Source of the DNA: Candidatus Falkowbacteria bacterium RIFOXYC2_FULL_36_12
GTDB taxonomy: Bacteria > Patescibacteriota > Patescibacteriia > UBA11705
Reading direction: 5' to 3'
Length of the DNA stretch: 64,000 nt
Assembly: GCA_001778235.1 (NCBI GenBank)
Contig: MFGJ01000001.1
Coordinates: 5,152 to 69,151, forward strand
Position numbers and translations under genes: made by a program. The notes below the pieces were generated by a model that saw only the letters and a list, made by a program, of their open reading frames with translations, was not told the origin of the DNA and did not search any database. Position 1 is the stretch's first letter; the number at the start of each line of letters is the position of its first letter. Below are positions 5,403 through 15,311 of the stretch, in pieces.

Positions 5403-5419
5403 ACATTACGAATACTAGA

Positions 5420-5450
5420 AAAAAACACGCCCAGAAAGGTGTGTTTTTTA
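5420..5450 (+). terminator. Rho-independent terminator after rnj.
   Basis: ACACGCCCAGAAAGGTGTGT hairpin followed by a T-run. Confidence 0.6.
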
Positions 5451-5454
5451 TTAT

Positions 5455-5895
5455 AAACATAAACTACCAGTGATAGCTAGTGTGGGCGTTTAAAGGCGAA
5501 GCCGTTGAAAGTAGTAGGCATCAGTTTAATCTAAATGTAAGTTGTTGTTTTGCTAAAGTGAGTTATTTTGAGATTGAGTGATTGATTTCGCTTTGCGAGC
5601 TACTTTTGACACCCTGCCTACCGGCAGGCAGGCAAAAGTAGCCAAAAGTGCTGGGGGGATTCAATGCGAATTGAAATGATTATCTCTCGTGCATTGATTA
5701 CGCGCAGAATCCCCCCAGACCTGCCTTCATCAAGATTATGGCAGGCAAGCCCCGATGCTTGGCATGTTCGTGGGGATGAATAATAAAGTAATTGCTTAAT
5801 ACGGTGGAAAATGAATTGCAGGTGATTAAATTATATAAAGATGGAGGCCTTTGCCCGAAAGATAGAAACTACCAGTTGCTATGCTGGTGGTTTTT
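5455..5895. repeat. Dispersed hairpin-rich repeat element, copy 1.
   Basis: It shares long blocks with 18040..18660: TTGAAAGTAGT-GG...TAATTTAAATGTAAGT-GTT--TGTT-GCTAAAG, GTGATTGAT, a CCTGCCTACCGGCAGGCAGG palindrome, GGGGGGATTC...GAATCCCCCC inverted repeats, and CATGTTCGTGGGG. It is flanked by imperfect direct repeats of AAACTACCAGT at 5461 and 5867. Confidence 0.7.
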
Positions 5896-5927
5896 CATTT
5901 GATTTGGCTAATTATAAACAAATATCA

Positions 5928-5956
5928 TTGACAAATCTAGCTTCTTTTGCTATAAT
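5928..5956 (+). promoter_or_regulatory. Consensus sigma70-type promoter for rnpB.
   Basis: TTGACA (5928-5933), a 17-bp spacer, then TATAAT (5951-5956). The RNase P RNA 5' end lies about 8 nt downstream. Confidence 0.7.
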
Positions 5957-5963
5957 GATGTTG

Positions 5964-6562
5964 GTTCCAAATGAGTAGTTCTGTCGCCCCCCCACTAAAA
6001 TTTATGTTTTATGTTTACCTTTTACAAAGCTTAAAGGATAAAAAACTTTATATTGGTTATACAAATGATTTAAGAAGAAGATTTGCTGAACATAATAAAG
6101 GTGAATCTAAGTCAACAAGAAATAGAAGACCTTTTAGATTGGTTTACTATGAAGCCTTTTTATCTCAAATTGATGCAAAAAACAGGGAACGGAAATTAAA
6201 ACTATTCAAAAATACTTACAACCACTTGAAAAAACGGATAGTAAATAGTCTTTTAGAACATAAATTTTAGTGGGGGGGAGGAAAGTCCGAACACTCACAC
6301 TTTGGTGTAGAATGGTAGCGGGTAATTCCCGTCGATTGGCTAGATTTATCATGTCAATCAGAGGTGCGAGCAGTGACGTCAAATTGAGAAATTAATTTGA
6401 ATCCCTTTGGGGATAATCTCTTTCGAAAGATAGAGAGTGAAACGGCTAAATCCTTACTTGAGTGCAAGAGCAAATTAGGTAGCTCGCTTGAACCTACAAG
6501 CAATTGTAGGGCTAGATAGATGACAGTTAAAACAGAATTCGGCTTACTCACTTGTTTGGAAC
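5964..6562 (+). ncRNA. rnpB: RNase P RNA (bacterial type A) with a ~290-nt expansion of helix P3 that contains an ORF.
   Basis: P4 5' strand GGAGGAAAGTCCGAACAC at 6279-6296. GCAAGAGCAAATTAGG matches the GCAAGGCCAAAUAGG region. GGGCTAGATAGATGACAG...ACAGAATTCGGCTTAC matches GGCCUAGAUGAAUGAC...ACAGAACCCGGCUUA. P1 pairs GGTTCCAAATGAG with CTCACTTGTTTGGAACC. A terminator follows at 6570-6596 (GTGACGGCGTCAC plus a T-run). Confidence 0.85.
6004..6270 (+). CDS. GIY-YIG nuclease family protein (UPF0213 / YhbQ-like, 88 aa) lying inside the RNase P RNA P3 helix.
   Basis: MFYVYLLQSLKDKKLYIGYTNDLRRRFAEHNKGESKSTRNRRPFRLVYYEAFL... matches the small GIY-YIG (YhbQ/COG2827) pattern. The ORF sits exactly in the loop of a perfect 20-bp stem (5987-6006 pairs with 6259-6278), so its ATG pairs with the CAT just upstream of its stop. 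The track start at 5971 would read through the rnpB P1/P2 strands, so 6004 is preferred. Confidence 0.75.
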   Translation: MFYVYLLQSLKDKKLYIGYTNDLRRRFAEHNKGESKSTRNRRPFRLVYYEAFLSQIDAKNRERKLKLFKNTYNHLKKRIVNSLLEHKF

Positions 6563-6654
6563 CAAAAAAAGATAGTGACGGCGTCACTGTTTTTTTATTT
6601 GAAAAAACATTAATTTTTAAGTATAATATCTGTAGTTATTTATTTAAATTTATT

Positions 6655-14545: not shown

Positions 14546-14662
14546 GGAGGAGTGGCCGAATGGTTGAAGGCGGCGGTCTTGAAAACCGCAGGTACGCAAG
14601 TACCCAGGGGTTCTCCGCCAAAGGACGGACTAGTCCTACGGCTAGGATTCCCTCCTCCTCCG
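14546..14662 (+). tRNA. tRNA-Ser (anticodon TGA)-like gene with an apparent ~32-nt insertion in the T-arm; possibly an intron-like element or a pseudogene.
   Basis: The 5' half is canonical class II: acceptor GGAGGAG, D-arm TGGCCGAATGGTTGAAGGC, anticodon stem GCGGT/ACCGC with loop CTTGAAA, and variable arm GGTACGCAAGTACC. The acceptor 3' strand CTCCTCC lies at 14655-14661. GGGGTTC and GATTCCCTC are separated by TCCGCCAAAGGACGGACTAGTCCTACGGCTAG, making the gene 117 nt rather than about 90. Confidence 0.5.
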
Positions 14663-15197: not shown

Positions 15198-15311
15198 CTA
15201 TGGTTTTTCTTGACAAAAGTATAGAAGTTTGTTATTCTATACTATTGGACTTTGAAACAGTTTGGAAATTAATGAATTCAGCCCCCCCCCTCACACCACC
15301 AGGAGAAAACC

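Follow-up and report, generated by a model that had tools for sequence, protein, structure and literature searches.

The 64,000-nucleotide stretch of DNA analysed here (the window) lies on contig MFGJ01000001.1 of Candidatus Falkowbacteria bacterium RIFOXYC2_FULL_36_12, a member of the Candidate Phyla Radiation (CPR). Its plus strand carries a gene for RNase P RNA (rnpB, class A; 5962..6566, insert included). Within this gene, in the position of helix P3, lies a hairpin element (5987..6278) that encloses an open reading frame (ORF) for an 88-amino-acid GIY-YIG nuclease (6004..6270, stop codon included). An earlier note on this DNA had described the arrangement as a selfish or homing-type insertion in an expanded P3. 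The results presented here support the selfish nature of the insertion and point to a different origin of the helix.

The host gene has the features expected of a class-A RNase P RNA, as the earlier note had recognized from the promoter, P1, both strands of P4 and the core motifs. The assignment is supported by an Rfam match, by the predicted fold and by alignment to two relatives with the same gene order, L081 and L082, which were fetched via the upstream RNase J protein (76% and 72% identical to that of the window, respectively). P1/P2 closure, P8, P15 with a GGU loop and P18 are all present. An inverted-repeat search paired the two strands of P1 (5961..5976 and 6550..6565). The 5' strand of P2, CTGTC (5981..5985), pairs with GACAG (6522-6526), and the Rfam alignment of the homologous L082 gene assigns the same bases to P2. 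The sequence and the Rfam alignment place the P4 5' strand GAGGAAAGTCCGAAC at 6278..6292, where it is invariant in L081 and L082. Farther downstream the Rfam alignment places the P8 hairpin CGGGTAATTCCCG (6319..6331), P15 (GAGC...GCTC, with GGU in the L15 loop; 6468..6485) and the P18 hairpin (6493..6510); P16 and P17 are absent. The segment 6509..6547, read from the sequence and the Rfam alignment, contains GGGCTAGATAGATGACAG, which holds the 3' strand of P2, and then the P4 3' strand ACAGAATTCGGCTTAC. The universally conserved portions of P4, GAGGAAAGUCC (6278-6289) and ACAGAAnnCGGCUUA (6532-6547), are both present and do not vary in the three-way alignment. The gene is preceded by a promoter (5928..5956) with a -35 TTGACA, a 17-nt spacer and a TG-extended -10 TATAAT (12/12 matches), which is also kept in L081 and L082. 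It is followed by a terminator-like hairpin AGTGACGGCGTCACT and a T-run (6574..6597; the hairpin itself 6574-6588); the scan reported this hairpin on the minus strand, and the plus-strand T-run was read directly from the sequence. The minimum-free-energy fold of 5962-6566 retains P1 and the long stem of the element (z=-4.85).

A relaxed Rfam scan matched RNaseP_bact_a (RF00010) to 6231-6562 (E=1.7e-21, 71 bits), taking in P4, P8, P15 with its GGU, P18 and the P4 3' strand. A covariance search, which the earlier note had suggested as a means to fix the boundaries of the RNA, thus supported the identity of the gene. Because of the insert, the alignment pushes the 5' strands into the tail of the ORF, and the score stays below the gathering threshold of 100 bits. 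At that threshold, a scan of the whole window returned tRNAs only. The rnpB of L082, which has no insert, also scores below the threshold (93.7 bits, E=2.4e-29), and the insert is therefore not the sole reason for the low score. These scores agree with Lui, Nielsen and Arkin (2021; PMC8172020), in whose work CPR rnpB genes fall below the Rfam thresholds and the thresholds were lowered for the RNase P RNA of 10 of 35 circular CPR genomes.

A score below the cut-off could be taken to mean that the insertion has turned this copy of rnpB into an inactive pseudogene, or that the locus is an assembly chimera. Either can hardly be credited, given that the insert-free gene is likewise below the cut-off and that the promoter, the terminator and every conserved motif of the core are intact. 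An assembly artefact is excluded by the recurrence of the identical locus on 13 contigs, which come from at least three independent groundwater assemblies; the three that were retrieved are 100% identical over 676 nt. Both strands of P1 vary among the window, L081 and L082, in a manner that by eye appears compensatory, and the core is conserved in L081, which also bears an insert. Among the three genes the rnpB core is 80-84% identical, compared with 63% for the insert, indicating that the insert-bearing genes remain under constraint. Moreover, the element occurs in seven other rnpB genes.

The insert is a hairpin with an ORF inside it. Its 5' arm CCCCCCCACTAAAATTTATGTTTTA (5987..6011) carries the conserved end CCCCCCCAC, and its 3' arm TAGAACATAAATTTTAGTGGGGGGG (6254..6278) finishes with GTGGGGGGG. 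A perfect 20-bp stem (5987-6006 with 6259-6278) had been seen from the sequence; the inverted-repeat search extends the arms to 25 nt each, with 96% complementarity. The ORF fills 267 of the 292 nt (92%) and reaches into both arms, as the earlier note had it: its ATG (6004-6006) base-pairs with a CAT (6259-6261) three codons ahead of the stop, and the last codons with the TAG stop (6268-6270) sit within the 3' arm. The ORF list gives a 99-amino-acid version from an upstream in-frame ATG, whereas the family alignment puts the conserved start MFYVY at 6004. With a GC content of 26%, the ORF lies below both the rnpB core (41.5%) and the window (35%). A perfect inverted repeat of 20 nt placed exactly around an ORF is far beyond chance. 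The window scan found no promoter-like site belonging to the element itself, and neither the ORF nor the end motifs occur elsewhere in the window. A self-splicing intron was rejected as an explanation, since no group I or group II intron model matched 5900-6650 in Rfam even at E-values up to 10 and an insert that is 92% ORF leaves no room for a ribozyme core. This agrees with the earlier suggestion that the insertion needs no splicing. A lone CCCCCCCCCCTCACACCACC run at 15282-15299 (+) resembles the 5' end motif of the element and has no complementary partner in the window; it adjoins a downstream ATG with a Shine-Dalgarno-like AGGAG and may be a remnant or unrelated.

Comparison with insert-free alleles, another proposal of the earlier note, located the insertion site. 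The promoters, P1, P2 and cores of the window, L081 and L082 are homologous, and approximately 290 nt are exclusive to the window and L081, exactly at the P3 of L082. The rnpB of L082 shows clean P1, P2 and P3 helices in the Rfam alignment, including a 7-bp P3, CUCCGAU-GUUAAA-AUUGGAG. Because this homologous P3 aligns cleanly to the model, the insert can be assigned to the P3 position. L081 carries an insert at the same site in which a 1-nt deletion ends the ORF after 31 codons, whereas the stem survives. Among the three relatives, which share their gene order, the element is thus intact in one, decayed in another and absent from the third, which is the pattern of a selfish element as judged from their sequences. 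It was incorrect, however, to regard the long stem as an expanded P3. The outer ends of the element, CCCC.CAC / GTG.GGGG, are conserved irrespective of host, including in hosts other than rnpB. The C-run and G-run of the window are therefore the element's own palindromic terminus, which stands in the place of P3. The outermost ~4 bp of the stem may be common to the element and to the base of the native P3 (CYCC/GGRG).

The 88-amino-acid protein belongs to the UPF0213/YhbQ-SLX1 branch of GIY-YIG proteins, in accordance with the original assignment to the UPF0213/YhbQ type. Residues 1-71 match the Pfam GIY-YIG domain PF01541 (E=6e-17, 62.1 bits; cut-off 22.6), and the Pfam search of the protein returned GIY-YIG-type catalytic-domain models only, with no DNA-binding domain. 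Residues Y5, Y16, G18, R26, H30 and E62 are invariant across 31 aligned sequences; we take Y5, Y16, R26, H30 and E62 to be catalytic. Nearly 900 homologues of ~84-89 amino acids were found, and those few with a named organism come from CPR/Patescibacteria genomes. A sequence search of the PDB gave the UPF0213 proteins BH0048 and EF2693 as the best solved relatives (1zg2, E=4e-14; 1ywl), followed by SLX1. Using an AlphaFold model (mean predicted local distance difference test, pLDDT, 82.7), Foldseek ranked 1zg2 first and SLX1 entries next (probability 1.0, 27-36% identity). Genes of the YhbQ type stand alone as ordinary genes whose role is unknown, unlike the nested ORF of the window, and SLX1 has a RING domain and requires SLX4, unlike the bare window protein. 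We know of no YhbQ or SLX1 that is framed by a palindrome or nested in an RNA gene. The ratio of nonsynonymous to synonymous substitution (dN/dS) is 0.01-0.1 in the three pairs for which it could be computed, since synonymous sites (dS) are saturated in most others. By this sequence measure, the ORF family is under purifying selection. Viral contigs yielded only two weak relatives of the ORF, and a phage vector is therefore unlikely.

GIY-YIG homing endonucleases include I-TevI, encoded in group I introns, and the free-standing Seg proteins of phage T4, among them SegB in a tRNA gene cluster. The window ORF shares with them the catalytic fold, a selfish lifestyle and a placement in or beside stable-RNA genes. 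A classical homing endonuclease gene would cut the empty P3 allele in a sequence-specific manner and be copied in by repair. The site is known in an empty (L082) and in a filled state. Several observations are in keeping with a homing gene: the same P3 site is filled in five lineages, the insert adjoins P4, which as the most conserved rnpB sequence is a typical homing target, and the group I intron endonuclease model TIGR01453 finds the protein weakly. That match, however, reaches 24.9 bits against a cut-off of 56, and the protein is only 88 residues long, has no DNA-binding domain, is neither intron-encoded nor phage-borne, and resembles SLX1 structures better than the I-TevI catalytic domain. 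Furthermore, ORF similarity is independent of insertion site. The P3-site ORFs do not group together, and the nearest relative of the window ORF (71%) is the copy at the P15 site of L001. It is highly improbable that the element is a homing gene in this sense, and the homing-type part of the earlier proposal is thus doubtful.

The element belongs to a family with many hosts. Host contexts were counted for the best 80 of at least 579 loci in species-representative genomes (L001-L080). Six of the 80 are inside rnpB, at P3 in L006, L018 and L047 and at distal P15 in L001, L045 and L060, where the element takes the place of P16/P17. With L081 these make up the seven further rnpB genes, and together with the window they place rnpB insertions in at least eight CPR lineages and in two helices. 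One copy lies in 16S rRNA (L007, at the tip of h17) and two lie in 23S rRNA (L061, near nucleotide 270, and L009, at the tip of H45, a classical intervening-sequence site). At approximately 27 loci the element lies immediately 5' of a tRNA gene that shares its strand, and at two it lies immediately 5' of a transfer-messenger RNA (tmRNA) gene. Many of the remaining loci are between protein genes. Stems of at least 12 bp flank the ORF in 41 of the 80 loci, compared with 3 of 80 for displaced control windows, and in 26 loci the stem is 19-28 bp long (mode 21). One genome has two copies with nothing in common but the element itself, and several diverged copies were found in a single genome. Where the element is linked to a tRNA gene, its 3' G-run doubles as tRNA nucleotides +1 to +4. 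These nucleotides are tied up in the stem, which must therefore be resolved before the tRNA can mature. Nine tRNA-linked copies (L016, L019, L021, L023, L033, L035, L041, L044 and L055, around 1470-1780) also have a 7-11-nt direct duplicate of the tRNA 5' end before the 5' arm, for example GGGCCCGTAG followed by CCCCTCAC, the ORF, GTGAG and GGGCCCGTAG again. A tandem pair of hairpin-plus-ORF elements is found upstream of a tRNA-Ala gene in L003 (1479-2070).

With roughly half of the 80 loci in or beside stable-RNA genes, the protein could instead be a host-beneficial stable-RNA factor, for example an RNA-processing or quality-control nuclease, whose co-expression with tRNA, tmRNA, rRNA and RNase P RNA is deliberate and which is not selfish. 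Its high conservation in the face of saturated dS and the near absence of the family from viral contigs would fit such a role. We regard it as improbable nonetheless. The distribution is patchy, the closest relatives of the window gene being one empty site and one pseudogene; many copies lie between unrelated protein genes and several diverged copies can share a genome; and the nearest characterised fold relatives, SLX1, are structure-specific nucleases of DNA.

Intervening sequences (IVS) are inserts in the 23S and 16S rRNA of Salmonella, Leptospira and other bacteria that are removed by RNase III without re-ligation. Such inserts are summarized in PMC11270868. Like them, the window element takes the place of a helix tip at the periphery of a stable RNA and has a long stem that closes it; it would be co-transcribed with its host, contains no ribozyme and is patchy among relatives. 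Some IVS also carry an ORF, and a member of the family occupies the H45 site in L009. Unlike IVS, the element of the window has an RNase P ribozyme as its host and encodes a GIY-YIG nuclease in place of the 23S_rRNA_IVP protein. We lean towards the conclusion that P3 of a functional class-A rnpB has been replaced by a selfish hairpin element of ~290 bp that behaves like an rRNA intervening sequence. The element would be co-transcribed from the strong rnpB promoter, and its long stem would seal the insert off as a helix extension, allowing the ribozyme core to fold normally. RNase III requires a duplex of about two helical turns and would most likely cut the perfect duplex, which is of that length; the stem lengths of 19-28 bp across the family are compatible with such an excision. 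Cutting may free the ORF RNA for translation, with a 5' end close to the AUG. The RNase P RNA would then consist of two pieces, the 5' piece ~30-40 nt long, joined by pairing in P1, P2 and what is left of P3. The nuclease presumably serves the spread or maintenance of the element at the DNA level.

The same element of the same origin might also never be excised, in which case the mature RNase P RNA would keep the insert as a giant P3 extension and translation of the ORF would be either absent or rare, drawing on nascent transcripts. This possibility has to be taken seriously, although we consider it unlikely. ORF-less hairpins with the same ends in the rnpB genes of L018, L060, L047 and L081 are presumably kept in the RNA, and the survival of the L081 stem despite a dead ORF is what one would predict for a stem whose sole importance lies in the folding of the ribozyme. 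Large extensions of peripheral helices have been reported for CPR RNase P RNAs (PMC8172020). Retention is harder to reconcile with the strong purifying selection on the ORF family, which must therefore be expressed, with the tRNA-linked copies, which require resolution of the stem, and with stem lengths that cluster at 19-28 bp, approximately two helical turns.

Several points weigh against the intervening-sequence-like reading of a functional, selfish insert. Excision by RNase III and a ribozyme in two pieces are steps that we infer purely. The RNase III signature motif was not found in a six-frame translation of the 64-kb window, which is uninformative for the genome as a whole. The start codon of the ORF lies within the stem, and no Shine-Dalgarno sequence was read upstream of it. 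The sub-threshold Rfam scores of the window gene and of L082 belong here as well, as does the lack of any DNA-binding domain in the nuclease. Synonymous sites are saturated between copies, and the family therefore shows no sign of recent movement. No consistent target-site duplication was found at the rnpB, rRNA or intergenic copies. Finally, the 48 stems contain 13 internal mismatches, of which five are G-T and five A-C. This equality shows no RNA-strand bias and lends no support to selection of the stem at the level of RNA.

The arms themselves suggest a role for the palindrome in DNA. The inner arm sequence varies freely across copies and the changes are fully compensated. Arms that are nearly free of mismatches, despite saturated synonymous sites and freely varying inner arms, suggest that the palindrome is maintained at the DNA level. 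The stems have hardly any G-U wobbles even though the elements are old. In this they differ from the helices of ordinary structural RNAs, and selection acting solely on a helix of RNA does not explain it. Such maintenance in DNA, taken with the SLX1-like fold, motivates the view that the protein is a structure-specific nuclease. A more far-reaching proposal, which we offer tentatively and as a whole, is that the hairpin and ORF (~290 bp) form an undescribed autonomous mobile element whose nuclease acts on a DNA hairpin or cruciform of its own arms and not on a target sequence. The element would have spread among the stable-RNA genes and spacers of CPR genomes and spawned ORF-less miniature hairpins, and its insertion in rnpB would leave a natural RNase P ribozyme that is either in two pieces or has a giant P3. 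The family does have features of terminal-inverted-repeat transposons or of miniature (MITE-like) elements, with terminal inverted repeats of conserved ends and ORF-less derivatives (L018, L060 and L081). The encoded protein is in no known transposase family, and the 7-11-nt direct repeats are confined to tRNA-linked copies.

ORF-less hairpins with the ends CCCCCCAC / GTGGGGGG were observed in four rnpB genes (L018 2170-2196, L060 ~1820-1876, L047 ~2095-2170 and L081 7427-7477). They are located between the 3' strands of P2 and P4, the "P19" position, except in L081, where the hairpin is in the P5-P7 interval. In L018 and L060 the gene also holds an element with an ORF, and the outermost 14-15 nt of the hairpin are identical to the arms of that element. 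By their sequence, these hairpins look like miniature derivatives of the element.

The earlier note knew of no described protein-coding insertion in rnpB. For rnpB this holds, since literature searches revealed no report of a protein-coding or palindromic insert in that gene. Apparently the same protein family, however, is already on record from CPR rRNA. Tsurumaki et al. (2024; PMC11270868) describe GIY-YIG proteins in CPR rRNA insertions that are not introns, and also cite their reference 2 for such proteins. Those inserts and the window element apparently share the protein family and the lineages, and both are non-intron insertions at variable, poorly conserved sites. The copies in L007, L009 and L061 are of this kind. 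Neither RNase P nor tRNA occurs anywhere in the text of PMC11270868. The term "inverted repeat" is likewise absent from it and "stem" is used only for the location of inserts in rRNA stem-loops, so that the palindromic ends appear to be undescribed. ORF-less derivatives are not mentioned in the passages covered. The diverged CPR RNase P RNAs of PMC8172020 have "large extensions of helices", including P15, which is the site of the element in L001, L045 and L060; in the passages covered, the extensions are tied to no ORF or mobile element. What is new here is an IVS-like GIY-YIG element with an RNase P ribozyme as its host, the kind itself being known from rRNA. Repetitive sequence in a peripheral helix of rnpB is not without parallel. 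Short tandemly repeated (STRR) sequences in P12 of the rnpB of heterocyst-forming cyanobacteria were reportedly described by Vioque in 1997. There, as with the window element, an RNase P RNA that works tolerates a repetitive element in one of its peripheral helices, but those repeats are non-coding, form no palindromic hairpin and encode no nuclease.

Other features of the window and of the related loci were also observed. Approximately 460 nt between RNase J and rnpB (5440-5900, +) contain several hairpins, without a convincing ORF, and an inverted repeat (5651-5662 / 5707-5718). This region has no Rfam match at the gathering threshold and is not conserved in L081 or L082; the spacer 5403-5927 likewise lacks conservation in relatives. 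A tRNA-Ser(UGA)-like gene of 117 nt at 14546-14662 (+) scores 38 bits with the Rfam tRNA model; ARAGORN did not call it. Its fold is a cloverleaf in which the variable arm is long and the T-loop is split at position 56/57, with UUC and GAUU on either side of an extra hairpin of ~32 nt. In a bacterium, an insert placed there is very unusual. tRNA copies that are partial or degenerate, broken by small GC-rich hairpins such as CCCCGCAGCGGCGGGG and CCCCGTCGCTCGCGAGCGACGGGG, are present upstream of 1501 in L014, L024, L040, L057, L059, L066, L069 and L070, and downstream of 1769 in L004. These hairpins seem to be a second kind of CPR mini-insert. Group I intron matches were obtained at L029 69-301 (49 bits) and L027 984-1234 (-) (58 bits), ~1.2 kb and 270 nt, respectively, from a GIY-YIG hairpin element, and inserts of different kinds may cluster in the two genomes.

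The GIY-YIG inserts of CPR rRNA, formerly unconnected, now form part of one element family with defined palindromic ends, whose wider range takes in rnpB, tRNA and tmRNA leaders and intergenic spacers. Inserts of this type lower an already sub-threshold Rfam score, from 93.7 bits in L082 to 71 bits in the window. They account in part for the many CPR rnpB genes that escape standard models; rnpB genes serve as a check of genome completeness (PMC8172020). The results also raise the question of whether an RNase P in nature can function as two fragments once RNase III has cut its RNA, and whether a bare SLX1-like nuclease may drive the mobility of a palindromic element.

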